The notes under the pieces are model-generated. The model did not search any database. It saw only the letters and a list, made by a program, of their open reading frames with translations, and had not been told where the DNA came from. Of a stretch of DNA of 35,602 bases, positions 8,305-25,472 are shown piece by piece (the stretch's first letter is position 1; each line of letters opens with the position of its first letter). Position numbers and translations under genes: made by a program. Source of the DNA: Desulfobacteraceae bacterium (lineage in GTDB: Bacteria > Desulfobacterota > DSM-4660 > Desulfatiglandales > Desulfatiglandaceae); NCBI GenBank assembly GCA_030612945.1, contig JAUWMY010000001.1, positions 1 through 35,602 of the forward strand. Direction: 5' to 3'.

Positions 8305-8448
8305 TTTTAGCTCCTTTCAGTCGCAGGGTTCAAAGGTTCAGGGTTCAAGGTTCAGGGGTTTCTGCTCTTTGGTTTCTGACTGGAGTTTATTCCGGTATTC
8401 CCGGAACCCTCTGACTTCTGATCTCTGATCTCTGACTTCTGACCTCTG
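8305..8448. repeat. junction module: RBS block GCTCCTTTCAGTCGC, GGTTCAR heptamers (8326-8360), 29-bp hairpin motif (8385-8413), TCTGAYN heptamers x5 (8410-8448)
   Basis: Read directly. Confidence 0.9.
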
Positions 8449-8597
8449 GCTTTTATCGGTTTGATTTCTTCAAACTTCCTCTTCTCCTCGGGCGGTACTT
8501 CCCCATACGCCTTGCCTCGCACAAACTTCCTCCCGGCAAAAGGCCCGTCCACCACGTCAAAATTCTCAATTCCTTTTTTAAGTTTATACTGGGTCAT
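8352..8597 (-). CDS. small virion-module protein (81 aa; the last ~28 residues are encoded by repeat arrays)
   Basis: The ATG overlaps the upstream gene's stop. The C-terminal RGQKSEIRDQKSEGSGNTGINSSQKPKSRNP is a translation of the TCTGAYN array, the 29-bp hairpin motif and the GGTTCAR array. The stop TGA lies inside that last array. Confidence 0.5.
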   Translation of the reverse strand: MTQYKLKKGIENFDVVDGPFAGRKFVRGKAYGEVPPEEKRKFEEIKPIKARGQKSEIRDQKSEGSGNTGINSSQKPKSRNP

Positions 8598-9043
8598 GGT
8601 CTCAATCCCTCCCTAATGTATTGATAGGTGATCAGCTTCCTTTGCAGGGCCTCTTTTTCATCACCGAATAGCACGCTTCCTTCCTCCGAAGGGCTGTAGG
8701 CTTCTTGCATGCCGTCTATATCCAACAGGTTTTCATCCAGCGCTTCCTGAATATCATCGGAGATCTCCAGTACACCCTTCTTGCTCGTGGCCGTGTCTCC
8801 CATGATGCTGGCTTCGTCTTTTGCAAGTTGCACCATAATTACGATGGTCACATTCAGGGTAACTTCCAGCATACCGCTGGCAAGCTCTTTGCGATCAATG
8901 CGGCCGTCCTTAATCCCCACACAGGGCGGCCGCACCTGGCTCGGAATATAATTCTCATGGGGCGCGATGTAGATGTCGCTGTCCCGGATGTAAGTCAGAT
9001 CCGTTTGGAGCTGGGTTTGTATGGCGGTTAGAAGTGCTTTCAA
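8594..9043 (-). CDS. head-tail joining / tail-completion-like protein (149 aa), TTG start
   Basis: The N-terminus MKALLTAIQTQLQTDLTYIRD has the shape typical of tail-completion families. The start is TTG at 9043, preceded by GGGCACTTATTT. Located between the DUF1320 adaptor and the tail genes. Confidence 0.6.
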   Translation of the reverse strand: MKALLTAIQTQLQTDLTYIRDSDIYIAPHENYIPSQVRPPCVGIKDGRIDRKELASGMLEVTLNVTIVIMVQLAKDEASIMGDTATSKKGVLEISDDIQEALDENLLDIDGMQEAYSPSEEGSVLFGDEKEALQRKLITYQYIREGLRP

Positions 9044-9182
9044 AATAAGTGCCCTTTTCGATTGACTATTTTCGATTGTCTATTTGATGAACGCTTCGCT
9101 CCTATTTTGACAAAAACCTCGATGTAGATCAGCGTAGCGTTCCTTAGATAATCGTCAATATTCAATAGTCAATAGTCAATTC
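9044..9182. repeat. full composite junction element: AAATAAGTGCC, GACTATT-type arm (9059-9085), core 9089-9100 / 9131-9142 with the loop inverted relative to 3096-3125, AATAGTC-type arm (9143-9182)
   Basis: The loop CCTATTTTGACAAAAACCTCGATGTAGATC is the reverse complement (2 mismatches) of the loop at 3096-3125. Confidence 0.9.
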
Positions 9183-9608
9183 TTACCATCCCTTCAGCTT
9201 TTCCCTGGAAAATATCCTGTCGCTCGATGAGATCTCGGGATAATTGGTCCCTGCAGGCGTGCCGTCCGGGTCATCCTCGCCGAGAGATACCAGGCCCTTG
9301 GGTACTTTTTCCAGGAATGCGATCCTATCGTCGTATCTCTCCTTGATAGATTCCGGAGCGCCCCGGCGTCTGCTATAGAGATTGTAGATCGCTATATCCA
9401 CAGACACGATCAGTATTATCGGCGGGACGGTGGTAAACGGCACAGTGTACTTTGTGCCGCAATAGCTGTCGATCTCGGCATCGGCATTCGCGATCGCACG
9501 CGTAACCTTGTCCTCATCAACGACGCCGGCATCCTCATCATCAGTTAACTGGATGAGGACGTCCTCTTCCATTTGTTCCAGGATATCCGCTTCTGTGCAG
9601 TAGGGCAT
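9183..9608 (-). CDS. Mu gp36-like head-tail adaptor (DUF1320-like), 141 aa
   Basis: MPYCTEADILEQMEEDVLIQLTDDEDAGVVDEDKVTRAIANADAEIDSYCGTKYTVPF...YNLYSRRR matches the recollected DUF1320 pattern. RBS ACGGAG lies upstream of the ATG. Confidence 0.75.
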   Translation of the reverse strand: MPYCTEADILEQMEEDVLIQLTDDEDAGVVDEDKVTRAIANADAEIDSYCGTKYTVPFTTVPPIILIVSVDIAIYNLYSRRRGAPESIKERYDDRIAFLEKVPKGLVSLGEDDPDGTPAGTNYPEISSSDRIFSREKLKGW

Positions 9609-9616
9609 TGCTTGCT

Positions 9617-9644
9617 CCGTTACGGGTTGCGGGTTACGGGTTTA
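9617..9644. repeat. heptamer array GGGTTRC x4
   Basis: Read directly. On the mRNA strand it supplies the TAA stop of the upstream gene and ends in ACGGAG-N7-ATG. Confidence 0.85.
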
Positions 9645-9921
9645 TTCGCGGGCCTTTTTCCCCTGACTTTTTACCCGCCTGTTTTTTGACCTCTGCCTTC
9701 TCTTTCCTCTTTTCCCGGAGTACCGGGATCCCGGTATTGAGCGGAGCGCCGGGACCTGATTCCTGCTTATCCTTCACGGCCTCGACGGTGAGCATGGGCT
9801 CAGCCCTTAAGGTCTCCAGATCTCCTTTGGAAAACTTATCATTCGGATATTCAACGGCCCCTTTGGGATGTGCCACCCCGCAGCGCCTGAAATTATGCCT
9901 TTTACTCGTTATACGAATCAT
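9634..9921 (-). CDS. FluMu HI1506-like small head-module protein (95 aa from the second ATG)
   Basis: MIRITSKRHNFRRCGVAHPKGAVEYPNDKFSKGDLETLRAEPMLTVEAV resembles the FluMu N-terminal domain family that follows gpT. AAGGAG lies 6 nt before the ATG at 9921. The stop TAA falls inside the AACCCGY heptamer array. Confidence 0.6.
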   Translation of the reverse strand: MIRITSKRHNFRRCGVAHPKGAVEYPNDKFSKGDLETLRAEPMLTVEAVKDKQESGPGAPLNTGIPVLREKRKEKAEVKKQAGKKSGEKGPRINP

Positions 9922-9936
9922 GTTCGCTCCTTTCAT

Positions 9937-10069
9937 TCGATTGACTATTTTCGATTGTCTATTGACTATTGGATGAACGCTTCGCTCTCTTGTTTAAAAA
10001 AACCTAAGATAGAAAAAGCGAAGCGTTCTCTTGATAATAGTCAATAGTCATTAGTCAATATTCAATTCT
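9937..10069. repeat. full composite junction element: GACTATT arm (9939-9970), core 9975-9986 / 10017-10028, AATAGTC arm (10033-10069)
   Basis: Positions 9939-9981 are identical over 43 nt to 17450-17492. Confidence 0.9.
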
Positions 10070-10981
10070 TTATCCCGCTCCCGTGGACCCGTAACTCATC
10101 TGCCATAAACCGTATCCACCTGCGGCCCTGGCCTCGGCACCAAACCGGAACTTTTTGCGCATGAAGACGTTATCCGCCTCCGGCGTTGTCTGCTGCACAA
10201 AGACCGGCGCCTTCCGTTCCTGGTATACAAACGGCTTGAGCGGCCGGTTAGTAACATGCAGCATCCATTGCGTAGCGCTCGTAATCCTGGGATTGACAAG
10301 AAGCGTGGCCGTTCCCCTGTACGGGTTGGGCGATTCGTCTGTGAGCTTTTCGTTTTCCAGCAAAATCTTGCCGGTGGCTTCTAAAGCCGGTCCGACTTCG
10401 AGCAGATCCGGTACAAGCGCCAGAGGGCGGCCCTCGTCATCCTTAAAACTCATGATGGCCAGCCTTGCAGCCCCGTAGCTTGCAGCTGCACCGGCCGCGT
10501 TTGCAACGGACAGGGCGGCCGTGCCGTGATTGCTCACGCTGGATCCTGCCACGTCGTGGTCGGTGTCGTAGAAATACTGGCCGTCGTAGCATTCATTGGT
10601 GAATGCGTCGTTTTTGAGATCCGCGTCGAGCTCATCGGGCAACTGTTTGGAGCTGTATCCCGCCTCCTGGGCCTGTGGACCATAGATCCCGATATTGTCA
10701 TCTTCTATATCGTTCCGGTCCACCTCCACTGTGGCCTCAAAGTCGTCGTTTACGATGGTGTACTTGAAGGCCTCAAGGGTCTTCAATACCTTGTCTCCCA
10801 GCCACTTGCGCATCTTGGGAAACCTGGAGAGCCAGGTGTAATCGTTCTGACTCGAACCGCTGGGGACCTTCATCGTGGTCTTTGCCCAGAGGCTGGGAGC
10901 CGCGTCGAATGCCTTGTTAAACGTGGTTTTCAGGTTAATGAAAACCGCTGTGAGATTGGTTTTGTTTACCAGCATGATCAT
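10070..10981 (-). CDS. Mu gpT-like major head subunit (303 aa)
   Basis: The N-terminus LVNKTNLTAVFINLKTTFNKAFDAAPSLWAKTTMKVPSGSSQNDYTWLSRFPKMRKWLGDKV matches the recollected Mu-like gpT family. The position after the protease/scaffold also fits. Confidence 0.88.
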   Translation of the reverse strand: MIMLVNKTNLTAVFINLKTTFNKAFDAAPSLWAKTTMKVPSGSSQNDYTWLSRFPKMRKWLGDKVLKTLEAFKYTIVNDDFEATVEVDRNDIEDDNIGIYGPQAQEAGYSSKQLPDELDADLKNDAFTNECYDGQYFYDTDHDVAGSSVSNHGTAALSVANAAGAAASYGAARLAIMSFKDDEGRPLALVPDLLEVGPALEATGKILLENEKLTDESPNPYRGTATLLVNPRITSATQWMLHVTNRPLKPFVYQERKAPVFVQQTTPEADNVFMRKKFRFGAEARAAGGYGLWQMSYGSTGAG

Positions 10982-11029
10982 TCTCCTTTTCTGAAATATT
11001 TTATGCCCCTACCGGGGCGTTAAACTGCT

Positions 11030-12090: not shown

Positions 12091-13110
12091 TTAGGCACTT
12101 TGAAGCCCTCCGTATTGTTTGATGTCCTCATCCGTATTGCCCATCATCTTGGCCACGGCGAGCACGGTCTCATCGATCACCCCTTCACCTTTATTTTTCT
12201 GGTTAGGAAGCTCTCCCACCGGGATCACTACCGGGGCCTTGGCCACGAAGGTCTTAAAGCCTTCCAGGTCTCGCAGTGCATATTCTTCCGCCCATTTCTT
12301 CTGGTCGGGCGAGATCTTGCCTTCAAGCGTCGCCTTTGCCACGACCTCATCCGCGTCCCGTTTGCTTAGATCCTTTTGCAGCCTGTCAAATTCCTCCCGA
12401 GATACGGATCCCTTTGAGGACTGTTTGAGCGCATGGATCGAAGCCACTACCGTAGACGCATCCCCCTCTGTCAGGTCCAATGCCTGAAGCACATCTTTGG
12501 CGATCACCTCCACCTGCTCAGGGCCTTTATTGGCCTTTGCCACGACCGCTTCCACGGCCTCCACAACCTTGTCCTCATCCGCCCCGGCCTCTATGCCGAG
12601 CTTTGCAATAAGCCTTTTCAAAAAATCCATATTTGTCTCCTCCTCCTGGAATTCCGATTCCAGCTTTGCCAGGATCGGAGTTAAATTGTTTGTCTTGGGC
12701 GCATTAGTGAGGGCCACCGAATGCACCGCGATCAACCTTTTGTCCTTCTTTCGCACAATGGAGACGGGCGAAAAATACCGATACTCTTTTTTCAGGATGA
12801 ACTCCTCTGCTTCATCGTTCCACTCTACCCTCACGGATATTCCCTTTGCCTCTTCCCAGCGATACTCTTTTATCCAGCCAGCAGCGGGCGCCTTGACTCC
12901 CTTAAGGGTCTGATGTTCATAGTCGATGACGATATCGTTTCCCCGTCTCGAGACAAAGGAGACAAGGGTATCAAATGCCTGTTTGTCCACGAGGAACGGT
13001 TTCTCCCCTTCGAGTTCAGTCCAGTCAGCCTCATAAAGCAGCATCCACTCCGGGATTTTACCGTCCTGGACATCGATTGCCGCGATAATGGCCTTTGCTA
13101 AAAATTGCAT
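12091..13110 (-). CDS. Mu gpI-like head protease with a C-terminal scaffold (Z-like) region, 339 aa from the ATG at 13110
   Basis: The track start (TTG at 13143) lies inside the TGAACCY array. The real start is most likely the ATG at 13110, preceded by GCGACTGAAAGGAGC. Contains the ...VIDYEHQTLKG... motif typical of Mu I proteases, followed by a helical, acidic C-terminal half. Confidence 0.82.
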   Translation of the reverse strand: MQFLAKAIIAAIDVQDGKIPEWMLLYEADWTELEGEKPFLVDKQAFDTLVSFVSRRGNDIVIDYEHQTLKGVKAPAAGWIKEYRWEEAKGISVRVEWNDEAEEFILKKEYRYFSPVSIVRKKDKRLIAVHSVALTNAPKTNNLTPILAKLESEFQEEETNMDFLKRLIAKLGIEAGADEDKVVEAVEAVVAKANKGPEQVEVIAKDVLQALDLTEGDASTVVASIHALKQSSKGSVSREEFDRLQKDLSKRDADEVVAKATLEGKISPDQKKWAEEYALRDLEGFKTFVAKAPVVIPVGELPNQKNKGEGVIDETVLAVAKMMGNTDEDIKQYGGLQSA

Positions 13111-13157
13111 TTGTGCTCCTTTCAGTCGCGGTTCAGGGTTCAAGGTTCAAGGTTCAC
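13111..13157. repeat. junction module: RBS block GCTCCTTTCAGTCGCG plus GGTTCAR heptamers x4 (13130-13157)
   Basis: Read directly. The gpG stop codon lies inside the last unit. Confidence 0.9.
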
Positions 13158-13609
13158 AGTTTCCCTCGAACAATAAAATCACCCAGCGCCGCCTTCATCT
13201 CCACCCAGTCCTCATCCTGCACCATCATGTAAGGGCGTGCCGGGATAGTGACCTTCCTGCCACGACCGGCCTTGCCCCCGAAGTGATGTATGGCCGCGTA
13301 TACTTTGTTCGCCGATATCACTACTTTATCGTTAAACGCCTTATAATTAACCGCGCCCATCAGGCCACCCGCCATGCCCTGCTCTCTCAGGATAGCAGTG
13401 CCCTTCTTTGTCTTCAGTGTCTCGAGAGAGAGCGATGTCCACTTCTCGGGCCTCCCGCCTTTCTCAAAGTTCCGGACAATGGATGTCCTTGCAATAGCGC
13501 CTATAATCTTCATGGCAGGCGCGGGATTGCCCATCCGCTTGAGGATACCGCCCAGGAGTTTCCGCACTTCCCGATCGTCAATTTTTACGCTTACCGCTAC
13601 TCCACCCAC
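13154..13609 (-). CDS. Mu gpG-like virion morphogenesis protein (151 aa)
   Basis: VKIDDREVRKLLGGILKRMGNPAPAMKIIGAIARTSIVRNFEKGGRPEKW...VYAAIHHFGG matches the recollected gpG / phage virion morphogenesis family. The stop TGA is donated by the first TGAACC unit. The start codon is uncertain (GTG at 13609). Confidence 0.78.
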   Translation of the reverse strand: MGGVAVSVKIDDREVRKLLGGILKRMGNPAPAMKIIGAIARTSIVRNFEKGGRPEKWTSLSLETLKTKKGTAILREQGMAGGLMGAVNYKAFNDKVVISANKVYAAIHHFGGKAGRGRKVTIPARPYMMVQDEDWVEMKAALGDFIVRGKL

Positions 13610-13650
13610 TGACTTCTGACCTCTGATTTCTGACCTCTGATCTCTGACCT
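13608..13650. repeat. TCTGAYN heptamer array x6
   Basis: Read directly. It starts at the nucleotide after the stop of the F-like C-terminal ORF. Confidence 0.9.
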
Positions 13651-13851: not shown

Positions 13852-14361
13852 TCACTTGCACCCCCAGCCGTTTGGCGGGTAATGGGTCTCCCACCAGGGA
13901 TCGTCCGCGGGCAGGACCAGGTTATACCAGTGACTGTGCTCCTCTCTCGGCTCTGCCGCACGGGCGCCCACATACCTGAGAAACGGCCTGGCCTTGAGGA
14001 CATCGGGATCCATCATCTGGGCATAGTGTCCGACCGAATATGCCACGCTCAGGTTGGTATTGAAAATTACCGCCGTTCTCCATGCCCTGCCGCCCTTATA
14101 GATCCAGCCATGCCGCTGAACGATATCATCGAATCCCTTTCGGAATTCGGCCAGGGTCGTTCCCTCGGAAATGCCTTTTTTCACGGCCTCGCGCAGGTCT
14201 TCGAGCAGCTCGGACTTCATGGCCCCGGCCACGGAGAAAGCGCGGGCATGCATGGCCTTCCACAGGTCCTTCCAGGTGGCCGTGGGCACATTGAGCTTTT
14301 TCCTAAAAAACTCGATTGCCTCATCAAAGGGGAGTCTTATATATTCAGCGCTCGATAACAT
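13852..14361 (-). CDS. Mu F-like (SPP1 gp7 family) head morphogenesis protein, first 169 codons, ending at an in-frame TGA
   Basis: ...EEHSHWYNLVLPADDPWWETHYPPNGWGCK is followed by TGA (13852-13854), at the position where family members carry the second Cys of the PPNGW-x-C-(R/K)-C motif. The synteny portal, F, G also fits. Confidence 0.8.
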   Translation of the reverse strand: MLSSAEYIRLPFDEAIEFFRKKLNVPTATWKDLWKAMHARAFSVAGAMKSELLEDLREAVKKGISEGTTLAEFRKGFDDIVQRHGWIYKGGRAWRTAVIFNTNLSVAYSVGHYAQMMDPDVLKARPFLRYVGARAAEPREEHSHWYNLVLPADDPWWETHYPPNGWGCK

Positions 14362-15898
14362 CGAACCTCCCGGCCAGTTCGGCCACGGTAAAGGCCCTCT
14401 GCATCAGGGTTCCCAATGTTGATTCATCCATGTCCTTGTAAAGATCCAGCAGACCGTCCCGGAATTCCCCCAGGGAGTTCACCGAGGCAAGGAGATCCTC
14501 CACAGGCTTCATGAGATCGTCTAAAGAGGCCTCTGACAGGGTTTTATCGCCCAGCGCGCCTAATGTTACGGCCGGAGACAGGTCTTCGCCGCCAGGGCCT
14601 GATTTGGCCGTCAGACGGCTATATTTTGCCGGTATCGCTACCTGCTGCCGCCCCACGACCGGCTCGTTTCCCTCCGGTTCGGGAATATTGAATTCCTGGC
14701 GCACAAACGAGACCGGCATCTCCACGTTATGCTCTAACAGGCCGGTTACCCACTCGGCTTTTTCCTTGAGATTCTCGGCCTCTTCCCAGATCGGTCTATA
14801 TCCTGGGATCGGCGTATCCCACCCGAAATTAAACCCCACAATGGGCCGGATGAGCTGATACCGGATTGTCGCGGCATCGGCCCTGGTATCGGCCTTGGCC
14901 AGATCGAGCCTGACCTCGTTGTGGGTTTTGCTCGCTGCGTAGCTGCCCTTGTCTCCAACCTCGGCCGTGAGGGTCTGGCCCAGGATTGCCTTGGACATTT
15001 CTTTATTGCCGAACTGGGCCAGGTTTTTATATAGGTCTCCGGACACGCTGCCCTTTGCGGCCTCGATAAACTCGATCTCCGTGGATTTGGAGATAATGCC
15101 TGCCGCATCCGACCCCAGCGAGGATATGGCCGTGATCAGGGCGTCCCTATCTTCGGGGGTACTCCCCGTATCGTATTTCCCGAGCCTGAGGGGCATCCCG
15201 TAGACTTCGCAGAACACAACCCAGTCCTTGATGGCATAGTTTTTGAAGAGAAACCACCAGGCGCAGACCCTGAGGATACCGGCCCTGGTGGGATGACCGC
15301 TTTTGCCGCCGTAACGATGAAGGAGGGTTTTCCATGCAGGGATCTCAATCCCCATCGGATCGTCGTCCGTCAGGAGGAGCGGGGTCCGCAATAAATAGCC
15401 CAGGCGATCGGTGAAGAGAAAGCGCTTCTGATCGATAAACGTAAAGCCTCTGGGCAGGGCCTGGCTTTCCGATACGTCCCAGTCGATCTCCAGGGCAGAG
15501 AAGCCTTTGCCCACGCCGTCCTGGAGGGCCACAAGGGTGTCCTCAAAATCGGTCATGTTGTCAAAAAACTCTTCCACGAATTCAGCGACCTGCACGTCGC
15601 GCCTGTCCTCGGACGCGGGCCGGACCTTGAATTCCACGTCCAGGACCGCGTTTTTTCTTTTCCCCACCTCACCAAACAGGTGCCCGTCTTTTTCCTCCAT
15701 CTGCTCAAAGAGCTGGGCCTGCCTCTGGACATTGCCCGCGTCCGCCTCCTTGAAGATGGTTGCGAGCCTCTCGGGCGTCAGGCCTGCCGCGACATATTCC
15801 CGCCAGGAATCCAGTACCGGGGCCGCGGCCAGCGGTCGTTTCTCAGGTTTTTTTTCGACCCGATACTGCCTGCTGAATTGATCTAAGATCATCCCCAT
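14345..15898 (-). CDS. Mu gp29-like portal protein (DUF935-like), 517 aa
   Basis: Size and position between the large terminase and F fit a portal. It overlaps both neighbours by a few codons. Sequence character is consistent with the Mu-type portal family (recollection). Confidence 0.85.
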   Translation of the reverse strand: MGMILDQFSRQYRVEKKPEKRPLAAAPVLDSWREYVAAGLTPERLATIFKEADAGNVQRQAQLFEQMEEKDGHLFGEVGKRKNAVLDVEFKVRPASEDRRDVQVAEFVEEFFDNMTDFEDTLVALQDGVGKGFSALEIDWDVSESQALPRGFTFIDQKRFLFTDRLGYLLRTPLLLTDDDPMGIEIPAWKTLLHRYGGKSGHPTRAGILRVCAWWFLFKNYAIKDWVVFCEVYGMPLRLGKYDTGSTPEDRDALITAISSLGSDAAGIISKSTEIEFIEAAKGSVSGDLYKNLAQFGNKEMSKAILGQTLTAEVGDKGSYAASKTHNEVRLDLAKADTRADAATIRYQLIRPIVGFNFGWDTPIPGYRPIWEEAENLKEKAEWVTGLLEHNVEMPVSFVRQEFNIPEPEGNEPVVGRQQVAIPAKYSRLTAKSGPGGEDLSPAVTLGALGDKTLSEASLDDLMKPVEDLLASVNSLGEFRDGLLDLYKDMDESTLGTLMQRAFTVAELAGRFDVIER

Positions 15899-17436
15899 GC
15901 TCCTTTTGCCGCTAACCGGCGTTTGACAAGACTCTCGTATTCTGCTTTGCCGCTGCCCATCGTTTTTAATAACGCCACCGCCCCCTCCAGCGCATCGGCC
16001 CCGTCATCGGGAAAGGTTGGCTGATCGAGATAAAGGAGCTGCTCCACAACCTTATCCTGGTCGCTGTCGCCCTTGGAAAACCTGAGACGACCATGCTCCA
16101 CCAGGTGACTGAGGCTGGCCACGATCCGGGCCTCTTTGTTTGTGCTGTGGTTTATGGATTGCACTGGCAAATAATATCCGTGCCGTTTTGCGGCCTCATC
16201 TATTACCGCCTGCAGGAAATCCTTGAGCGCGTTATCCTCGGCCCCCATCCTGATCCAGCCGATCTCATCATGCTGTCGATAGCAGGCGTCCATCATGGTG
16301 GCCGGGGATGCTTTTTTTACCCAGCAATGGAGCACATAATAAATCATGGCCTGCCGGTCTAAGCCCACCGCCACCAGTCCCTTATCGTCCCCGGTCTCTT
16401 TGCTGGATGGATCTAAAAATGAAATCTTTGTGAGTTCCACGTCCTTGATCTCATCCTCGTGGTAATAACGGATCCACTCTTCCCTGAAGGCGCTTTCTTC
16501 ATCCGTGGGATTGTTTTGCTTTTCCTTGTTAAAGGCCACCGAGCCCATGATCTTTTTTTGCTTCAGGAGCTTTTCGATTGGGTGCGCCGCGGGCCAGAGG
16601 GATGTGCCGTCTTCCTGGATGGCCCTGTAGATACGGCTTATCCAGTGGTTATAAGGCTCTTCCTCGCCTCGTATGATGATATTGAGGGCCGCCCTTTTGG
16701 CCAGTATTGTGCCAATGAGAAAAAGGTTGCCCGTCGATGCGATGCCCGGATATACCGTTTCCTTGATCCATTTCAAAAGGCCCTTGACTATGCGCGGATT
16801 TTTGACATTCTGGTCATTTTCCAGGTCGTCGAAAATAACTAAGTCGGGCCTGTATTGTTTATGCTTGAGTCCCCGGATGCGTTGACCCCGGCCACGGGCA
16901 AGGACACGCACATCATTTTTTGTCACAAAACCATAAACAGACCAGTCCACCTCGGCCAGATGCCCGAAATCCTGGCGAAGACGCTGATTCATTGCCAATT
17001 CCAAAAGCAGGTACCCCACCAGGTCCCCGGCCAGATCCTCTGTGTCAGAGCCCAGGATGACAAAGTGCCTGAGTTCATGACATATCTGGTGAATCACATA
17101 GCCGAAGCTGGTAATAGTGCTCTTTGCAAATTCCCGTGGGGCCGCAACCACAACCGGGACCATAACGTCCGCCGGGTCATTCGGGTCGGGCCGGGTGTCC
17201 AGATCCTCGATCAGGTCATGGTGAAAGGGCGCCTCCTCGGCGTAGAAATAATGGGGCAGGTAGGTGCGGAAAAAATAGAAGTGATCGTACTTAGACCGCT
17301 CGACCCGTTTTTTTTGTTCCTCCGGCTCATCAGAAAAAGGCAATACTTCGGCCGTCAAAGCGGCAAGGACATTGTTGTATCTCTTTTTGAATTCCGCCTT
17401 AGTCAGCTTCTGCTTTATGGTAATCTTTTTTGCCAT
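15889..17436 (-). CDS. Mu gp28-like terminase large subunit (515 aa)
   Basis: P-loop-like VVAAPREFAKSTI, a DD-containing Walker B region (LVIFDDLEND) and a C-terminal nuclease-like region. RBS ACGGAGAA lies before the ATG at 17436. Confidence 0.88.
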   Translation of the reverse strand: MAKKITIKQKLTKAEFKKRYNNVLAALTAEVLPFSDEPEEQKKRVERSKYDHFYFFRTYLPHYFYAEEAPFHHDLIEDLDTRPDPNDPADVMVPVVVAAPREFAKSTITSFGYVIHQICHELRHFVILGSDTEDLAGDLVGYLLLELAMNQRLRQDFGHLAEVDWSVYGFVTKNDVRVLARGRGQRIRGLKHKQYRPDLVIFDDLENDQNVKNPRIVKGLLKWIKETVYPGIASTGNLFLIGTILAKRAALNIIIRGEEEPYNHWISRIYRAIQEDGTSLWPAAHPIEKLLKQKKIMGSVAFNKEKQNNPTDEESAFREEWIRYYHEDEIKDVELTKISFLDPSSKETGDDKGLVAVGLDRQAMIYYVLHCWVKKASPATMMDACYRQHDEIGWIRMGAEDNALKDFLQAVIDEAAKRHGYYLPVQSINHSTNKEARIVASLSHLVEHGRLRFSKGDSDQDKVVEQLLYLDQPTFPDDGADALEGAVALLKTMGSGKAEYESLVKRRLAAKGAWG

Positions 17437-17448
17437 ATTCTCCGTTTA

Positions 17449-17597
17449 TGATTGACTATTTTCGATTGTCTATTGACTATTGGATGAACGCTACGCTCCT
17501 GTTTTGACAAAAGCCTCGATGCAGATCAGCGGCCTCCGGCTCGGAGAGAGCGTTCCCTTGATAATAGTCAATAGTCAGTAGTCAATATTCAATTCTT
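17449..17597. repeat. full composite junction element whose right core is interrupted by a mini-palindrome (CTCCG-GCT-CGGAG, within 17527-17554)
   Basis: Read directly. Arms at 17450-17481 and 17561-17597. Confidence 0.9.
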
Positions 17598-19198: not shown

Positions 19199-19621
19199 TT
19201 ACTCCGGAACAACGTTCAAGGTGGCCTTGAAGTTTATAACGCCTGCAGGCGACTCAAAATCAATCAGGGCCGATACCTCGTTCGAATGTATGCTCTCATT
19301 ACCCTGGTCATCCAGGGCGGTTGCCACGAAATACCATGTCACGGTCTGGCCGTCCGGACTTGTGAGCACGCCATCAACCTCATACTCGGTCTGCTCTGTG
19401 GTATAGGTCAGCTCAACGAGCATGTCGGCATCATGGTCATAAACACCTGACGTCATGGATTTATAGATTCTGAATTTATCCACACCCTGGCCAACCGGAT
19501 CCACATACTCCCAGCCAAAAGTTATTGTTTTGTCCCCCGCAAAACACGGCGCAGCCATAACCAGCGCCGCCAGGGCAGCTAAGATGCTCAGCGCAATAAA
19601 GTTTTTCTTGAAAATTCTCAT
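19199..19621 (-). CDS. secreted fibronectin-III-like domain protein (140 aa)
   Basis: Signal peptide MRIFKKNFIALSILAALAALVMAAPCFA, then an FN3-like fold pattern (FRIYKS...YFVATALDDQGNESIHSNEV). Confidence 0.65.
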   Translation of the reverse strand: MRIFKKNFIALSILAALAALVMAAPCFAGDKTITFGWEYVDPVGQGVDKFRIYKSMTSGVYDHDADMLVELTYTTEQTEYEVDGVLTSPDGQTVTWYFVATALDDQGNESIHSNEVSALIDFESPAGVINFKATLNVVPE

Positions 19622-20046
19622 CGTTTTTTTCCTCCGTATTTGCGTAATTTAAATTTTGTTATACATTCATGTTTTTCTTTGCGATGCATGTTCCAGGCCC
19701 CGAAGGCAAAACATCTGACAACGGAATACATCAGCGCGTATCTCCACCGCTTGACCTTGAGCGCCTTCATTCCTTCAAGGAAAATCTTATCACTTTTTTT
19801 TCGATCAAAACACGCCGACCAGTAACACCAGTCATGGATAACGGCGGCCTTGCCGTACATCCCTTGCGGTGGCAGGATATTCCAAAAAAGCCGCGGGATA
19901 CTGGCAAAATCAGTGACGAAGCCCAGGGGCGCCCTGATAATGTTTTTGCTTGGATAGCTCCCCACGTGATACTCAAAAGACTCAAGCAGTTGCCATTTAT
20001 TTACTCCGATAAGATCCACCTGCAATGGTTTAGTAAACTGACTCAT
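19618..20046 (-). CDS. DUF1353-like protein (142 aa from the ATG at 20046)
   Basis: GFVTDFASIPRLFWNILPPQGMYGKAAVIHDWCY matches the recollected DUF1353 core. The track start lies inside the repeat array. Confidence 0.65.
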   Translation of the reverse strand: MSQFTKPLQVDLIGVNKWQLLESFEYHVGSYPSKNIIRAPLGFVTDFASIPRLFWNILPPQGMYGKAAVIHDWCYWSACFDRKKSDKIFLEGMKALKVKRWRYALMYSVVRCFAFGAWNMHRKEKHECITKFKLRKYGGKKR

Positions 20047-20060
20047 TATGCCCTCTCGGG

Positions 20061-20154
20061 GGTTCACGGTTCAGGGTTCAAGGTTCAAGGTTAAAAAAGC
20101 AGCGGAGCGTTCGCTAAATAATAGTCAATATTCAATAGTCAATCGTCAATTCTT
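20061..20154. repeat. GGTTCAR heptamers x4.5 (20061-20092), half core AGCGGAGCGTTC (20101-20112), AATAGTC-type heptamers x5
   Basis: Read directly. Confidence 0.9.
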
Positions 20155-20580: not shown

Positions 20581-20630
20581 AAAAAAGCCCGGCCATTCGC
20601 TGTGAAACATTAGCACGCGATTGACCGGGC
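20581..20630 (-). terminator. candidate intrinsic terminator separating the early/middle genes from the lysis/late genes
   Basis: Minus strand reads GCCCGG...(imperfect extended stem)...CCGGGC followed by TTTTTTG. After it comes a ~80-nt AT-rich leader before the endolysin ATG. Confidence 0.5.
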
Positions 20631-20633
20631 CTT

Positions 20634-20700
20634 ATTTATTGACTATTTTCGATTGACTATTGACTATTAAAAAAACAATAACCAATAGTCAATTTTTTAC
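20634..20700. repeat. short hairpin element: GACTATT arm, A-rich loop, AATAGTC arm; no core
   Basis: Read directly. It lies between the stop at 20701 and the terminator. Confidence 0.85.
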
Positions 20701-20917: not shown

Positions 20918-21799
20918 TTACACCTCCTTTGGGTTTACGATTGATACCGGAGCCATAGGCAACGGGCTGAATGATAAAGCCCCTGGCAATTCTTTAAAAA
21001 ATCGTTTCTTTCTTTCACTCCCTATCACGGGTTTAAATTTAATGCCTGAGCCCCTAAGATCTTTTTCTATCCTTTTCACCTGATCAACCGAGACCCCGCA
21101 GGCGGCCGCAACCTCTTTTTGGGTCAGGCCCAAAGTCCTGAAACGGCAGTGTTTTATTAACCTCTCCATCGAAATATCATACATATCGCATATCTCGAAA
21201 AAGATAAGTCCCTGCTTAAAGCCCAGTTCCCTGGCCTCATTTCGGATCTCTTCAGGCATTTTATAGACCGCTCCATTTGAGTGCTTAATTTCTCCGAATT
21301 GGCATATCGCTTCTTCTACCTTGTCAAGCGCTTCCAAATCTCGCCTACCATTATTCCAATATGCCATATAAAATAGCCACATTGCATCATTATTGAACAC
21401 GGCATTTCTGTTTTCATGGCTTATTTTCAATAATTTCATATCTTTGGAGAAATAGCTCCCAGTAGTCATAACCTCATAAAGCACATCCTCTGCCCAGTTG
21501 CGAAATTCCCTTGCACGTTGACCTTGGGATCTCATCGAAAACCTTATCATTCCGCGAGCAGTGAGATATGTCCTTTTTCTTGCCTGTTTGTCTCCGACCT
21601 GGTGTTCGGTAATCGAACGGCAGTGTTTTTCCTCAACGATTTCATGTGATTCCTTAAGGTCATGAAGTGTTCTCCTGGGCTGTTTATTGCCAATAGCCTC
21701 ACCGACTTGTTGCAAACTTACAATCCGTTCGGCTTCCCTTTCAATAATAGAAAGAGGATACTCCTTGCCGTGCGCCTCAAATTTTACCACGTTTCCCAT
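20918..21799 (-). CDS. BRO-N-like domain protein with a C-terminal HTH (293 aa); candidate antirepressor or late-gene regulator
   Basis: YLTARGMIRFSMRSQGQRAREFRNWAEDVLYEVMTTGSY resembles the end of BRO-N domains. The C-terminal LGLTQKEVAAACGVSVDQVKRIEKDL is an HTH. RBS GGAGGT precedes the ATG. Confidence 0.65.
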   Translation of the reverse strand: MGNVVKFEAHGKEYPLSIIEREAERIVSLQQVGEAIGNKQPRRTLHDLKESHEIVEEKHCRSITEHQVGDKQARKRTYLTARGMIRFSMRSQGQRAREFRNWAEDVLYEVMTTGSYFSKDMKLLKISHENRNAVFNNDAMWLFYMAYWNNGRRDLEALDKVEEAICQFGEIKHSNGAVYKMPEEIRNEARELGFKQGLIFFEICDMYDISMERLIKHCRFRTLGLTQKEVAAACGVSVDQVKRIEKDLRGSGIKFKPVIGSERKKRFFKELPGALSFSPLPMAPVSIVNPKEV

Positions 21800-22026: not shown

Positions 22027-22269
22027 TCAATCCTTCAAGCCTTCGATCACAACTTCCCCGTCCGTATTATAGACCGTGCCCCGATTAATCTGGATAACCG
22101 GCCGGATCTTATCTTTCATCTGCTTCTCCAGCAAGGCAATTCGATCATTCACCGAATCATCCACACCCGCACGCCAGTCCCACAAAATGACAGCCAAAGC
22201 CAATATCAAGGCAAAACCCAGAAATATAACTCCAGCATCAAAAAACCCTTTTTTACCCCTATTTCCCAT
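22027..22269 (-). CDS. small single-pass membrane protein (80 aa from the ATG at 22269)
   Basis: MGNRGKKGFFDAGVIFLGFALILALAVILW contains one transmembrane helix. The start overlaps the upstream ORF end (ATGGGAAATAG). Confidence 0.55.
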   Translation of the reverse strand: MGNRGKKGFFDAGVIFLGFALILALAVILWDWRAGVDDSVNDRIALLEKQMKDKIRPVIQINRGTVYNTDGEVVIEGLKD

Positions 22270-22807
22270 TTTCTGTTTCCTCTTTACCAATTCCCTTCAT
22301 TTGCCCCGCCAACTTCCCGATCCGTTCCCGAAATTCCCCCGACGTCATCTCCCCTTCCTGTCTCCTGTTTCCTATTTCCTCTTTTCTATTTTCTATTTCC
22401 CGTTTCCTTAATTGCTTTTCCGCCCTCACACTCTTCTCCTTAACTTCCCTTTCCGAGATCCCCACCATCACCTTTTTCAGATAATTATGGTTCTCCAAGG
22501 GCACATCAAAATTCTTATTCACAACAATTTCAAGGGCCTCCAAAATGCCCGACTTAGATAAGGACTTGTTACTTTTACGCCATTCAAAAGACTCCTTTTC
22601 AAACAACGTCCCCATTTGTTGAAGAAGCCGGAGAACCTTACTGCTCTTGATTGACAGCGGTTTAATGCCGAACTTCTCCACGTACTCAAACACTAACTTT
22701 CCATGCTTACCAAATACCGGCAATAACCTTATTATACCCCTCCAGTCATCATCCATAACCGCCTCACGATAGTCGAATTTATAACTGCATTTCGGACATC
22801 TAATCAT
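22259..22807 (-). CDS. zinc-ribbon protein with an in-frame heptamer array near its C-terminus (182 aa from the ATG at 22807)
   Basis: MIRCPKCSYKFDY is a CxxC knuckle. Residues ...RKREIENRKEEIGNRRQEGE... are encoded by 8 heptamer units at 22355-22410. The track start (TTG at 22834) lies in the TGAACC array. Confidence 0.55.
   Translation of the reverse strand: MIRCPKCSYKFDYREAVMDDDWRGIIRLLPVFGKHGKLVFEYVEKFGIKPLSIKSSKVLRLLQQMGTLFEKESFEWRKSNKSLSKSGILEALEIVVNKNFDVPLENHNYLKKVMVGISEREVKEKSVRAEKQLRKREIENRKEEIGNRRQEGEMTSGEFRERIGKLAGQMKGIGKEETENGK
22355..22410. repeat. pyrimidine heptamer array TTCCTNT x8, in frame inside ORF 22259-22807
   Basis: Read directly. Confidence 0.9.
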
Positions 22808-22820
22808 AAAAGGGGTTCTC

Positions 22821-22885
22821 CGTTCAGGGTTCAAGGTTCACCGTTTACTGATTCCTCTTTCCTCTTTTCTATTTCCTGTTTCCAC
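22821..22885. repeat. GGTTCAR x3 (22821-22841) plus TTTCCTC-type heptamers x5 (22851-22885)
   Basis: Read directly. Confidence 0.85.
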
Positions 22886-22986
22886 ATATCCCCGATCTGG
22901 GCAATCAGCGCCGTTCCAAAACAAACTACTAATAATGGCCCCAACCAAATCCAACTCTCATTGATGCTCATCATGATCATTTCCAT
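22831..22986 (-). CDS. small membrane protein (51 aa), not in the ORF track
   Basis: MEMIMMSINESWIWLGPLLVVCFGTALIAQIGDMWKQEIEKRKEESVNGEP. AAGGGG lies 9 nt upstream of the ATG at 22986. It has one transmembrane helix, its tail is encoded by a heptamer array, and its stop lies in a TGAACC unit. Confidence 0.45.
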   Translation of the reverse strand: MEMIMMSINESWIWLGPLLVVCFGTALIAQIGDMWKQEIEKRKEESVNGEP

Positions 22987-22998
22987 CTATTCAACCCC

Positions 22999-23229
22999 TT
23001 ATTCGTTTTCGCTAAGCCACTTAACGGCCTCTTCGTATGCTTGCTCAAAACCCTTGCCAACCAACCGATACAGGGCCGTTTGCATTTCCGGCGGCAGTCG
23101 CTTATAGCAGCCATAACAAAACGCATATCCATGCTTCTTTTCCCGGTCGCAAAAACACTCTTCACTGGCCAGGACTCGAGTATAAAAATTCGTTTCCTTC
23201 TTCCAGCTTTGATCCGGTAAAGTATCCAT
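22999..23229 (-). CDS. Cys-rich small protein (76 aa)
   Basis: ECFCDREKKHGYAFCYGCYKRLP gives four or more Cys in a zinc-binding-like spacing. The competing 62-aa frame looks spurious. Confidence 0.55.
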   Translation of the reverse strand: MDTLPDQSWKKETNFYTRVLASEECFCDREKKHGYAFCYGCYKRLPPEMQTALYRLVGKGFEQAYEEAVKWLSENE

Positions 23230-23251
23230 TATGCCCCCTCCTCTCTAACAA

Positions 23252-23368
23252 ACAGGAAATAGATAAGAGACAGAAATTAGAAAACAGGAATCAGAAAATA
23301 GAAGACAGGCTTTTCTTTCCTCTTTCCTCTTTCCTATTTCCTATTTCCCATCCCTTTCCTCTTTTCTG
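23252..23368. repeat. inverted pair of heptamer arrays: purine-rich arm (23252-23309, 8 units) facing a pyrimidine-rich arm (23311-23368)
   Basis: Read directly. The arms are imperfectly complementary and separated by 1 nt. Confidence 0.85.
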
Positions 23369-23518
23369 GCTCGCCGCCCTTATAGCAACCAGTTGCCGCA
23401 TCATATCCTCATGGCAGGCCCCACAGATCCCGCTCGACCCTTCAGCCGCCGACCAGCTCACAACAGTCTTAATCCCTTTTTTCTCACACCAAGAACAATA
23501 CACAGGATACTTTTCCAT
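23291..23518 (-). CDS. zinc-ribbon small protein (75 aa; C-terminal tail encoded by repeats)
   Basis: CSWCEKKG...CGACHEDM gives two CxxC pairs. The tail GKGWEIGNRKEERGKKSLSSIF is a translation of heptamer arrays. Confidence 0.55.
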   Translation of the reverse strand: MEKYPVYCSWCEKKGIKTVVSWSAAEGSSGICGACHEDMMRQLVAIRAASQKRGKGWEIGNRKEERGKKSLSSIF

Positions 23519-23536
23519 AATCTTTTCTCATTCATT

Positions 23537-23574
23537 CAATAGTCAATAGTCAATCGAAAATAGTCAATTCTTAC
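23537..23574. repeat. AATAGTC-type arm, identical over 38 nt to 3141-3178
   Basis: CAATAGTCAATAGTCAATCGAAAATAGTCAATTCTTAC occurs at both sites. In both cases the TTA at the end is the stop codon of the upstream gene. Confidence 0.92.
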
Positions 23575-23774: not shown

Positions 23775-23797
23775 AATTTCCAACCCTTTCTTTTACC

Positions 23798-24082
23798 TTA
23801 TGCCCCATGCCCGCAGTTTATTCCGGTATTCCCGGAACCCTCTGCCCCCAAGACCGTCACAACCCGCCCACACCGTTCATCTATTTTCATGACAATACTC
23901 CGCCGTGCGTTCCAGTAAACCGACAAAAAAACCAACGGCATCCCCCGAGGAGTATAGGCCAGCCGGAATTTCTGCAACACAACCGACTCCTCAATAATAC
24001 CCTGAATCTCCAGCATCGACGGCAGCTCCCCGCCGATCCGCTCCTCCCACCGTTCCCGCGCGTGCTCCGTAAAAACATACAA
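23798..24082 (-). CDS. hypothetical protein (~94 aa, probable TTG start at 24082)
   Basis: AGGAGA lies 6 nt upstream of the in-frame TTG. The track start at 24121 translates the conserved core GAACGCTTCGCT. The C-terminal GAEGSGNTGIN is encoded by the 29-bp hairpin motif. Confidence 0.45.
   Translation of the reverse strand: MYVFTEHARERWEERIGGELPSMLEIQGIIEESVVLQKFRLAYTPRGMPLVFLSVYWNARRSIVMKIDERCGRVVTVLGAEGSGNTGINCGHGA
23816..23844. repeat. 29-bp motif GTTTATTCCGGTATTCCCGGAACCCTCTG, second copy (first copy at 8385-8413)
   Basis: Identical 29-mers. Each contains the palindrome TTCCGG-N5-CCGGAA. A related inverted version lies at 25391-25410. Confidence 0.9.
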
Positions 24083-24103
24083 TATATTTCTCCTAAAAAT
24101 TAA

Positions 24104-24154
24104 AGCGAAGCGTTCATCCAATAGTCAATAGTCAGTAGTCAATAGTCAATTCCT
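24104..24154. repeat. half core AGCGAAGCGTTC plus AATAGTC-type heptamers x5
   Basis: Read directly. The GemA-like stop TGA lies inside the array. Confidence 0.9.
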
Positions 24155-24646
24155 TTGGTAGTAGACAGCAACTCCTTTTTGTTTTGCCCTCGCCCTAACA
24201 ATATTAAACAAAGTCATAAGCTGCTCATTCGAGAGCCACCTCGGATCATCCCTCTTAAACCTCTTCCAGCAAAGCCCCCGCAGCGTCTTGGCCGCATACC
24301 CCATCTCCGCCCACATGGCATACATCATACGGATCTGCGGATCATCATCCTGCCGGAACTCATATTCAACATCCGGGTCCCCCTTTTTCCACCCCCGGAT
24401 CTTCACCGGTACCGCAGGCGAAAAAAGCTTCATACCCTTTTTCTGAAAATGATTGATCAGCCTATGTCTCTCAATTAAGGTAAGCTCACTCAAACCGCCA
24501 ACCGGCCGCCCCGCAATATCCGTCATCAGCGCGATCCAAACCACCTTATCTACATTGTACGGAAACCCAGAGGCCGCAAACGCCTTATGCAATAACCGGT
24601 TTTGCCGTGAGTATATGTCAGACGCTTTTTTAACTGTTTTTTTCAT
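24146..24646 (-). CDS. Mu GemA (gp16)-like protein, DUF1018-like (166 aa)
   Basis: Two-domain pattern with ...LSELTLIERHRLINHFQKKG... and ...QIRMMYAMWAEMGY...LCWKRF..., as recollected for gp16/GemA. The stop TGA lies inside the GACTATT array. Confidence 0.7.
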   Translation of the reverse strand: MKKTVKKASDIYSRQNRLLHKAFAASGFPYNVDKVVWIALMTDIAGRPVGGLSELTLIERHRLINHFQKKGMKLFSPAVPVKIRGWKKGDPDVEYEFRQDDDPQIRMMYAMWAEMGYAAKTLRGLCWKRFKRDDPRWLSNEQLMTLFNIVRARAKQKGVAVYYQRN

Positions 24647-24870
24647 GATTCTATCCAGTAGTGTTTGGGTACCAGCCCGCTTCCTTTTAACGCCCTTGTA
24701 CGCCTTACCGACCGGACCGGTAACACCTCGCTGATCGTCTTGACGTAATAGTAGCAGACCCTTATGCTCAGACCGGTGATATCGGAAATCTCCTTGATAG
24801 TATACGGCCCCTTGAGCAGTGTCTCAATAACCCGTAATAACGTGCGTAATATATAATTTCGATCTGCCAT
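24643..24870 (-). CDS. small winged-helix/HTH protein (75 aa from the ATG at 24870)
   Basis: MADRNYILRTLLRVIETLLKGPYTIKEISDITGLSIRVCYYYVK. The upstream part of the track ORF is translated repeat and motif sequence. Confidence 0.55.
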   Translation of the reverse strand: MADRNYILRTLLRVIETLLKGPYTIKEISDITGLSIRVCYYYVKTISEVLPVRSVRRTRALKGSGLVPKHYWIES

Positions 24871-24895
24871 TTTTCTCAAACTGCGTGGAAAAAAC

Positions 24896-25357
24896 TCACT
24901 CGCAACCCGTATCCCGCAACTCGTAACTGTATGTTTTCTTCTCTTTCCTCTTCGCCCCAATCACAACCAACCTCTCATCCGTCCACTTCTCCACCATCGC
25001 CCGGTCCACGCTCTTCGCAATCTTAACTGCCTCATCCCATCCCGCAGCCTCAATCTTCAAAAGCGCATCCCTCGGAATAGACACCCGCATCTCCCGAGCA
25101 TACAGCAATATCCCGTGCAATAATTTCAGCGTATCCTTCCCATCAAAAAGAGGCACACACCGGGACTTCATAAGACCAATCAACTCCTTATCCAACCCCT
25201 TCAACCGATCCCGCATCGGATCAATGCTCCTCGCGTAATGCGCCCGAACACCCTCGATCTCCTTCTCCGCCTCGGCCTCGGAGGCCTGGAGTCGCGCCGT
25301 GGCCTTGCCGATGGCATCCAATAATTTATCCGCGTCTTTTCGTACTGCTTCTTGCAT
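24896..25357 (-). CDS. Mu Gam-like DNA-end-binding / host nuclease inhibitor protein (153 aa)
   Basis: N-terminal coiled coil (LQASEAEAEKEIEGVRAHYARSIDPMRDRLKGLDKEL) followed by ...LLHGILLYAREMRVSIP...IAKSVDRAMVEKW, parallel to Mu Gam. RBS module ACGACTGGAAGGAGT precedes the start. The last ~10 codons are encoded by a heptamer array. Confidence 0.7.
   Translation of the reverse strand: MQEAVRKDADKLLDAIGKATARLQASEAEAEKEIEGVRAHYARSIDPMRDRLKGLDKELIGLMKSRCVPLFDGKDTLKLLHGILLYAREMRVSIPRDALLKIEAAGWDEAVKIAKSVDRAMVEKWTDERLVVIGAKRKEKKTYSYELRDTGCE
24901..24928. repeat. heptamer array CGYAWCY x4, encoding the C-terminus of the Gam-like protein
   Basis: Read directly. It is in the opposite orientation to the related array at 9617-9644. 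Confidence 0.8.
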
Positions 25358-25472
25358 GTTACTCCTTCCAGTCGTGGTTCAAGGTTCACGGTTCCCCGGA
25401 AATACCGGGGCAAGCAAGGGTTCAGGGTTGACCATCCGTACTTTACTCTGCGCCCTCTGCGCCCTCTGCGGT
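25358..25472. repeat. junction module: RBS block, GGTTCAR x3 (25376-25396), hairpin CCCCGG-N5-CCGGGG, GGTTCAR x2 (25418-25433), nonamer CTCTGCGCC x3 (25446-25472)
   Basis: Read directly. Confidence 0.9.

Follow-up and report, generated by a model that had tools for sequence, protein, structure and literature searches.

Does the recurrent pairing of tandem heptamers with an almost invariant Shine-Dalgarno (SD) block mark a distinct kind of gene start in phages, and what might such a pairing do? The question is raised by a 35,602 nt stretch of a Desulfobacteraceae bacterium (contig JAUWMY010000001.1, positions 1 to 35,602; hereafter the window), a Mu-like siphovirus prophage whose genes run on the minus strand. 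Three of these genes, encoding a tail-tube-like protein (start 8304), the gpI protease/scaffold (13110) and Gam (25357), are preceded by an array of TGAACCY units followed by a near-invariant 13 nt block, CGACTGRAAGGAG. This arrangement, first proposed in a sequence-only reading of the window, was confirmed, as were two further starts (20046 and 22807) that have the array without the block. The comparisons below suggest that the block-after-heptamer module is a real and apparently undescribed start signal, present in dozens of other uncultivated phages. We give an even chance to the reading that the three sites are copies of a widespread start-associated translation module, composed of an extended SD and a fast-evolving heptamer spacer or hairpin.

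The block is exact at 8311-8323, 13116-13128 and 25362-25374, in the contexts GCGACTGAAAGGAGC-N5-ATG (8304), GCGACTGAAAGGAGC-N4-ATG (13110) and ACGACTGGAAGGAGT-N3-ATG (25357), and was absent from 100 shuffles; a chance origin of arrays and block is excluded by shuffling. It consists of CGACU followed by GAAAGGAG, an extended SD that pairs over 8 bp with the anti-SD. The predicted pairing reaches -11.9 kcal/mol at three block sites (ranks 5-7 of the 45 starts) and -11.7 kcal/mol at Gam (rank 11), all in the top quartile, in line with the earlier claim that the arrays lead into a very strong SD. A further copy with one mismatch, CGAATGAAAGGAG, stands before the small gene that follows the major capsid protein (MCP) gene (9634-9921), and the ortholog of this gene in the related locus L346 has the exact block. 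An AACCCGT/AACCCGC array (9619-9642) lies directly 5' of the GGAG-N7-ATG of the head-tail adaptor gene (9183-9608), the L346 ortholog of which carries an exact CGACTGAAAGGAG block in place of that array.

The heptamer TGAACCY occurs 17 times in the window, 16 of them on the minus (coding) strand, and tandem TGAACCYTGAACC (at most one mismatch) occurs 13 times, on the minus strand in 13 of 13 cases, against 0.08 expected. These matches include five sense-strand arrays, each 5' of a gene start and 5-25 nt from the ATG. Six arrays in a single orientation had been claimed; the five are indeed all on the minus strand, but the sixth (25418) is a remnant of 1.7 units, for which 'array' is generous. 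At three sites the TGA of the array serves as the stop codon of the upstream open reading frame (ORF) (8352-8354, 13154-13156 and 22831-22833), so that the array fills the entire gap between stop codon and SD. TGA falls in all three frames in four of the five arrays, the Gam array covering only two. The five window arrays lack a complementary partner, save for a weak predicted pairing with AAGTCAG arrays at 8304 (z = -1.8). Stop-free AAGTCAG/AGGTCAG/GATCAGA arrays extend into ORF 3' ends at 8408-8448, 13609-13650 and 25856-25891, and the first of these is predicted (RNAfold) to form a long, imperfect duplex with the TGAACCY array downstream of it (-41.5 kcal/mol, z = -1.8).

Whether orthologous genes keep the module had been proposed as a check; they do so for the block but not for the array. 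The block is kept before the tail-tube orthologs of L070 (98% amino acid identity) and L193 (58%), and its G variant before the Gam orthologs of L300 and L342 (77-78%), while the adjoining arrays differ in every case and the gpI junction of L060 has been replaced altogether. Between the window and L070 the tail-tube block is identical at 13 of 13 positions (16 of 16 with the preceding CTG), and the 6 nt spacer to the ATG at one of six. In L346 the arrays before its three blocks belong to three different families, and elsewhere the block follows AGCTGAC, CTGAAGG, CATGCGC, TTCAGTT, GCTAGCG and other arrays. We scanned IMG/VR for CGACTGAAAGGAG-N3-8-ATG, calling an array where the period-7 autocorrelation in the preceding 45 nt was at least 0.5. 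Among the matches listed, a period-7 tract, with units unrelated to one another, preceded 22 of 101 non-redundant sites, against 0 of 106 for the control TCGCAGAAAGGAG-N3-8-ATG, which has a matched composition and the same SD (Fisher p = 3.7e-8).

Pooling all sources gave 36 non-redundant array-associated blocks, or at least 37 with the Gam site of the window. In 34 of the 36 an ATG comes next, 19 times at exactly 6 nt; the distance ranges from 2 to 8 nt with a mode of 6, and the flanks are not conserved. When the start codon was left out of the search, all ten array-preceded matches (ACTGRAAGGAG core) still lay 4-7 nt before an ATG. The module-bearing contigs span 40-67% GC, and the 13 noncoding nucleotides are exact across loci whose proteins are only 30-78% identical. 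In about half of the modules the array is an inverted pair forming a hairpin that ends 0-5 nt before the block (those of the relatives being perfect, 20-28 bp and intercistronic), and in the rest it is direct. Where the downstream gene could be annotated it was mostly a virion gene: tail tube (2), major tail, tube-like phrog_290, tape measure, tail assembly chaperone (one by PHROG plus an ortholog of the window gene 6245-6670), major head (2), portal, head-tail adaptor and protease, with Gam in addition. Two modules lie in cellular operons, at a flgC-fliE junction (L364) and an MR/MLE-HpcH aldolase junction (L303), on contigs of 48% and 66% GC; in the latter a perfect hairpin, (GTTCAAG)4/(CTTGAAC)4, is richer in AT than its contig. 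The proposal of a start-associated array-plus-block module is thereby supported, with TGAACCY as only one of many interchangeable array families.

How special is TGAACCY itself? Three tandem copies were found at no fewer than 120 IMG/VR loci (at least 120; 35-72% GC), compared with 15 and 57 loci for the scrambled units TGCAACY and GACTACY and 18 for ATTGACT, each in three copies, and with about 0.4 expected by chance on our own estimate. Since scrambled heptamers also match, viral contigs commonly carry heptamer arrays whatever their sequence, and we rejected special conservation of TGAACCY, which is at most few-fold enriched. Among the 113 TGAACCY arrays in the matches listed, to which the following counts also refer, the ACTGAAAGG core of the block comes after only about three. 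Of 113 TGAACC arrays, 56 stand in sense no more than 30 nt upstream of a long ORF and 19 do so in antisense, a bias that follows from the fact that TGA forbids sense-strand arrays within ORFs. In 17 of 113 a GGTTCA arm 5' of the TGAACC array pairs with it as a hairpin, and the reverse order never occurred. Relatives often have TGAACC in this 3' arm position; the orientation-locking claimed for the window holds within it but is not general. Array detection used simple autocorrelation thresholds, and genes in the fetched loci were crude longest-ORF calls.

The abundance of arbitrary heptamers is what would be expected if the arrays were neutral simple sequence repeats, produced by slippage in tolerated gaps beside an ordinary strong SD, with the block passed on, by descent or gene conversion, together with the junk around it and nothing but the SD functional. 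Period 7 dominates, as reported for long simple sequence repeats of prokaryotes (Mrazek, 2007, as cited in PMC4679880), copy number varies between near-identical contigs, the cultured relative JBD26 functions without arrays, and no effect on SD accessibility was found (see below). We nevertheless consider this explanation unlikely: it leaves unexplained the association of arrays with CGACU in the scans above, the exactness of 13 noncoding nucleotides across such divergent proteins and GC contents, and the maintained complementarity of the inverted arrays.

The arrays turn over rapidly. Within the prophage at least eight families of 7-9 nt tandem arrays occupy about 19 of 24 intergenic gaps, and an array lies no more than 45 nt from 21 of the 45 starts. 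Tandem arrays of period 7 number 15 in the window, against 0 of period 6 or 8, four of period 9 and 0.02 in shuffles. Further heptamer families are ATTGACT/AGTCAAT, AAGTCAG/AGGTCAG, GGAAAGA, CAGAAGA and AACCCGT, of which ATTGACT/AGTCAAT usually forms inverted pairs flanking a conserved GAACGCTTCGC core; longer units include the 8-mer CGCAGAGA and the 9-mers AAGTGCCTA and GGCGCAGAG. A search with the portal protein retrieved Desulfobacteraceae and Planctomycetota prophages and IMG/VR contigs, and in these relatives, which were not chosen for arrays, period 7 again dominates (37 arrays, against at most 16 for any other period). The unit families at corresponding gene junctions, immediately 5' of the SD, are peculiar to each related phage (e.g. 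GGATCAGTC in L061, AGCTGAT in L065, CACAAAGG in L106 and GAACCGT in L193). Genomes that are 86-98% identical differ in the order and number of units, and near-identical IMG/VR contigs by a single unit. Before gpI, L060 (88% amino acid identity) has an ATTGACT inverted-array element and a different SD in place of the TGAACCY array and block of the window; L070 has a TGAACCY array before the ortholog of 8594, where the window has an ATTGACT element, and its similarity to the window stops at the array at 13160. These differences fit slippage plus recombination, and TGAACCY itself is not conserved with the gene. The Mu G-like/gpI junction (13111-13153), which holds a 43 nt array plus block in the window, the ATTGACT element in L060, a different downstream gene in L070 and anti-CRISPR genes in JBD26 and such Pseudomonas relatives, appears to be an exchange hotspot.

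Such exchange raises the possibility that the module acts on DNA, as a mobile or recombinogenic junction cassette (a 'linker' or an element resembling a miniature inverted-repeat transposable element, MITE) that moves between junctions and genomes and supplies a stop and an SD, so that modules can be joined in any frame; the arrays could then be footprints of repeated 7 bp staggered cleavage beside the block. Phages of 86-98% identity have exchanged whole junctions, part of the SD included, the TGAACCY arrays of L070 stand at other junctions than those of the window, and the L070 similarity breaks off at an array. In addition, a sister ATTGACT element (17437-17597) flanked by an imperfect 13 bp duplication is missing from L060, and the module is also present in cellular operons of 48% and 66% GC, with arrays that are AT-rich for the L303 contig. 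We found no reverse-complement copy of the block, and neither a transposase nor a terminal inverted repeat for the module; selection alone would place breakpoints at gene boundaries, and the recurrence of the same units at several junctions per genome is unlike local target duplications. On balance we regard a cassette of this kind as quite improbable.

The arrays and the block are absent from 74 kb of host-like chromosome (syntenic loci L199-L203, around orthologs of the kinase that flanks the prophage). A host-genome-wide feature was rejected for this reason, although the module does occur in two cellular operons elsewhere. A general trait of D3112-like phages was likewise rejected, JBD26 having no period-7 array. 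The closest cultured relative of the module-bearing phages is only 41% identical, and full-text literature searches found neither the 13-mer in a relevant context nor heptamer arrays in phage intergenic regions.

For the translation module that we favour, we envisage a unit of initiation on a polycistronic mRNA, in which the 8 nt SD would recruit the 30S subunit and the array would separate cistrons as a spacer or boundary of low information content. Arrays that contain TGA, TGAACCY among them, would also provide the stop codon of the upstream gene in whichever frame is needed. Replication slippage would make and resize the arrays, and recombination would trade whole junction cassettes, with or without the SD, among junctions and phages.

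Placement speaks for a role in translation at the RNA level: the module has the sense orientation, stands 2-8 nt from the ATG, overlaps the SD and carries no promoter-like site. That role is inferred from placement only, and several observations weigh against this reading. The association with CGACU was measured against one control pattern, with both scans limited to the matches listed, and independence among the loci is incomplete: single-linkage on any shared protein groups 20 of 33 together, and connector genes of the window recur in about 11 of 26 further loci (30-68% identity), the rest having no detectable link. Array and block are both missing from the MCP gene (start 10981), the virion gene that is most abundant here, while genes for low-copy proteins (portal, tape measure) carry the module elsewhere. 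Stops are present in all three frames in 10 of the 37 modules and in none in 13, and among the intergenic arrays of the clade all-frame stops occur in sense only in 10, in antisense only in 7, in both in 6 and in neither in 13. Predicted SD accessibility is the same at array-associated sites (0.54) and controls (0.55), and the three window array leaders that were folded are not unusually unstructured compared with shuffles (z from about -1.8 to +0.6). Finally, pairing to the 3' tail of mature 16S rRNA presumably does not account for the CGACU part.

Some more specific functions were set aside on the same data. The arithmetic by which TGAACC units place stops in every frame is right, and TGA is the upstream stop at the three sites given above, but this is not a property of the class, and with no sense-strand enrichment among the clade arrays we rejected all-frame stops as a selected property. 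We also rejected the idea that the arrays keep the SD single-stranded, given equal accessibility and leaders not significantly less structured than shuffles. A sigma-70 promoter or terminator role was discarded as well: no sigma-70-like promoter overlaps the arrays in the window, and the one terminator-like hairpin (20100-20116) lies upstream of the 20060-20094 array. Pairing of CGACU with 16S rRNA would fall beyond what we take to be the mature 3' end. Only tRNA-Met (33065-33138) matched Rfam covariance models at the gathering score in the window, placing arrays and block in no known RNA family. The arrays lie between stop codon and SD with no promoter-like site over them, which sets them apart from phase-variable contingency repeats.

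Periodic units of this kind could also be binding sites for a trans-acting regulator, either an RNA-binding protein that contacts one heptamer per domain or subunit (S1, cold-shock or Com-like zinc finger) or a stoperator-like DNA-binding repressor. Their periodicity and position match a proposal made for the TAACTGA repeats described below (PMC4679880), unit families are phage-specific, and the window encodes small Cys-rich proteins to which no function is assigned. Yet a single genome has at least eight unrelated unit families, dozens of unrelated units stand beside the same block, and a 7 bp period would set successive DNA sites on different faces of the helix. No RNA-binding domain was found in the window proteins scanned against Pfam and PHROGs, and a phage-encoded RNA-binding partner was rejected accordingly. 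We think regulator-binding arrays very unlikely.

A bolder form of the translation reading, which we hold only as a doubtful possibility, takes CGACUGAAAGGAG to be recognised by a conserved trans-acting component of translation or of mRNA processing, with the adjacent heptamer arrays or hairpins as an obligatory, fast-evolving partner of CGACUGAAAGGAG. The two together would form a widespread intercistronic expression system for the virion genes of diverse uncultivated phages and, occasionally, for cellular operons. The reader of CGACUGAAAGGAG could be ribosome-associated, or a nuclease common to hosts of 40-67% GC, and the partner arrays could be a boundary, a stabiliser or an address.

Known systems resemble one or other half of the module. 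Cluster K mycobacteriophages have a 13 nt asymmetric, SD-containing start-associated sequence (SAS; consensus GGGATAGGAGCCC, at most two deviations), which lies 3-7 nt before starts in one orientation, strongly prefers ATG, precedes genes of different families and recurs many times within a genome, at non-structural genes only (Pope et al., 2011; PMC3203893). Just upstream of about half of the SAS copies is the extended SAS (ESAS), an imperfect 17 bp inverted repeat with a variable spacer and a sequence that differs between subgroups; the function of SAS and ESAS is not known, and the same paper names the stoperators of cluster A mycobacteriophages (PMC3203893). The likeness is in a 13 nt SD-containing sequence near ATG (here with spacers of 4, 5 and 6 nt), in one orientation and with a variable repeat upstream. 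The sequences differ, CGACTGRAAGGAG and GGGATAGGAGCCC having only an AGGAG core in common. So does the setting: three exact copies and one variant here, including the tail-tube and protease genes, in a Desulfobacterales-like host, and across genomes three to four copies each, mainly before virion genes, on contigs that span 40-67% GC, with two modules in cellular operons. What lies upstream here is a set of tandem heptamers (direct in the window, inverted hairpins in about half of the other modules). SAS/ESAS is the closest analogue in concept, and the earlier comparison with it is apt as an analogy, the module standing apart in sequence, host, gene class and upstream repeat.

The other half recalls the TAACTGA intergenic direct repeats of Beggiatoaceae, Cyanobacteria and Bacteroidetes, which occur in two to six or more copies at many intergenic loci, mostly a few nucleotides from a start codon, with stops in the forward orientation and no predicted RNA structure, and for which a translational role has been proposed but is unproven (MacGregor, 2015; PMC4679880). 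In the summary given there, heptanucleotides are the commonest class of prokaryotic long simple sequence repeat (LSSR) (Mrazek, 2007, in PMC4679880). Like TAACTGA, the cyanobacterial short tandemly repeated repetitive (STRR) sequences, the Nostoc heptamers and the LSSR class, the window arrays are tandem 7 nt repeats, above chance, intergenic and mostly near starts, and descriptively they fall within the class of heptanucleotide intergenic repeats. The known cases have a single dominant unit in cellular chromosomes, usually without a canonical ribosome-binding site, whereas here many unit families per prophage turn over between close relatives and are coupled to an invariant extended SD. The window units (TGAACCY, ATTGACT, AAGTCAG and others) are all missing from the 74 kb of host-like chromosome.

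Stoperators are single 13 bp repressor sites that act on transcription, the bound repressor blocking elongating RNA polymerase. They share with the arrays short asymmetric sites in many short intergenic regions, an orientation tied to transcription and a phage-specific consensus, but are neither tandem arrays nor fused to an SD, and the many unrelated unit families seen here would argue against a single-repressor scheme of this kind. Intercistronic hairpins, repetitive extragenic palindromes (REP), bacterial interspersed mosaic elements (BIME) and the RNase III sites of T7 set boundaries of mRNA processing and stability. The relatives' arrays resemble them in forming hairpins that end 0-5 nt before the block, unlike the five TGAACCY arrays of the window, which lack a complementary partner. 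SAS-like sequences and start-proximal heptamer repeats were thus each known before; here they are physically coupled. The coupled partner, an exact 13-mer at no fewer than 37 array-associated sites (at least 37) on contigs of 40-67% GC, is a concrete experimental handle. If the module boosts or insulates the translation of virion genes, it would be a portable expression element and would help to mark gene starts and late operons when uncultivated phages are annotated; should it be a recombination cassette, it would bear on how phage mosaics are assembled at gene boundaries.

The features of the window are collected in Table 1.

Table 1. Genes, heptamer arrays and blocks of the prophage, in window positions.
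Feature	Position	Strand	Remarks
Transposase	28498-30783	-	
MuB-like ATPase	26754-27473	-	
TGAACC remnant, 1.7 units	25418-25431	-	5' of hairpin CCCCGGTATTTCCGGGG
TGAACC array, 2.7 units	25376-25394	-	3' of hairpin CCCCGGTATTTCCGGGG
Block variant CGACTGGAAGGAG	25362-25374	-	4 nt 5' of Gam ATG 25357; G variant also before Gam in L300, L342
Gam	24896-25357	-	ATG 25357-25355
GemA	24146-24646	-	
ORF upstream of 22821 array	22831-22986	-	
TGAACCY array, ~3 units, without block	22821-22840	-	second TGA 22831-22833 = stop of ORF 22831-22986; 5' of ATG 22807
Gene with ATG 22807	22259-22807	-	
TGAACCY-type array, ~5 units, without block	20060-20094	-	5' of ATG 20046, DUF1353 gene
DUF1353 gene	19618-20046	-	ATG 20046
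Terminase	15889-17436	-	
Mu-type portal	14345-15898	-	
Mu G-like gene	13154-13609	-	
TGAACCY array, 3 units + TGAACC	13130-13156	-	first TGA 13154-13156 = stop of Mu G-like gene
Block CGACTGAAAGGAG	13116-13128	-	5 nt 5' of gpI ATG 13110
gpI protease/scaffold	12091-13110	-	ATG 13110-13108
gpT major capsid (MCP)	10070-10981	-	start 10981
One-mismatch block CGAATGAAAGGAG	9927-9939	-	5 nt 5' of ATG 9921; behind AGTCAAT array, not TGAACCY
Small post-MCP gene, phrog_6188	9634-9921	-	ATG 9921
Head-tail adaptor	9183-9608	-	
Small conserved ORF	8352-8597	-	conserved in L187
TGAACCY array, 4 units (one of 8 nt)	8324-8357	-	first TGA 8352-8354 = stop of ORF 8352-8597
Block CGACTGAAAGGAG	8311-8323	-	6 nt 5' of tail-tube-like ATG 8304; identical in L070, L193 orthologs
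Tail-tube-like gene	6838-8304	-	ATG 8304-8302

The capsid protein is about 61% identical to capsids of Pseudomonas phages of the D3112/JBD type. At its left end the prophage adjoins tRNA-Met (33062-33138) and a PAS histidine kinase, the best homologs of which are in Desulfobacterales-type metagenome-assembled genomes. The tRNA-Met gene (32850-33140 region) has its own terminator, and a period-11 repeat, GAAATTCACAT, at 32846-32872 near the prophage end may represent transposase-binding sites. Between two small Cys-rich ORFs (22999-23229 and 23291-23518), one with a CxxC...CxxC motif and a weak DUF7685 match, lie GGAAAGA arrays together with the inverted complement of these arrays (23270-23364); the ORFs recall Com-like zinc-finger translational regulators only loosely.

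Mosaic palindromic intergenic elements lie at 3036-3174, 6671-6837, 9044-9182, 9940-10069, 17437-17597, 20100-20154, 20600-20700, 23536-23570 and 24122-24145. Their outer arms are ATTGACT/AGTCAAT arrays (sometimes AAGTGCCTA 9-mers) and their inner arms a conserved inverted repeat, GGAACGCTTCGCT...AGCGAAGCGTTC. One of these elements (17437-17597), missing from the 86%-identical L060 and flanked by the imperfect duplication of about 13 bp (ATGGCTGAAAGAAT / ATGGCAAAAAAGAT), looks like the insertion of a MITE- or BIME-like element. A Y1-transposase gene (PF01797; IS200/IS605 type or REP-associated tyrosine transposase, RAYT, type) near the kinase ortholog in the host-like loci L199-L201 (~21221-21524) may bear on the mobilisation of palindromic intergenic elements. 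In the early region, octamer arrays (CGCAGAGA, CACAGAGA) and a 9-mer array (GGCGCAGAG) stand directly 5' of SDs at 28447-28497, 27778-27823, 26062-26110 and 25446-25470, and as they contain no T they have no stop codons. A perfect (CAGAAGA) x 4.4 array lies at 28795-28825, inside the C-terminal part of the transposase ORF.

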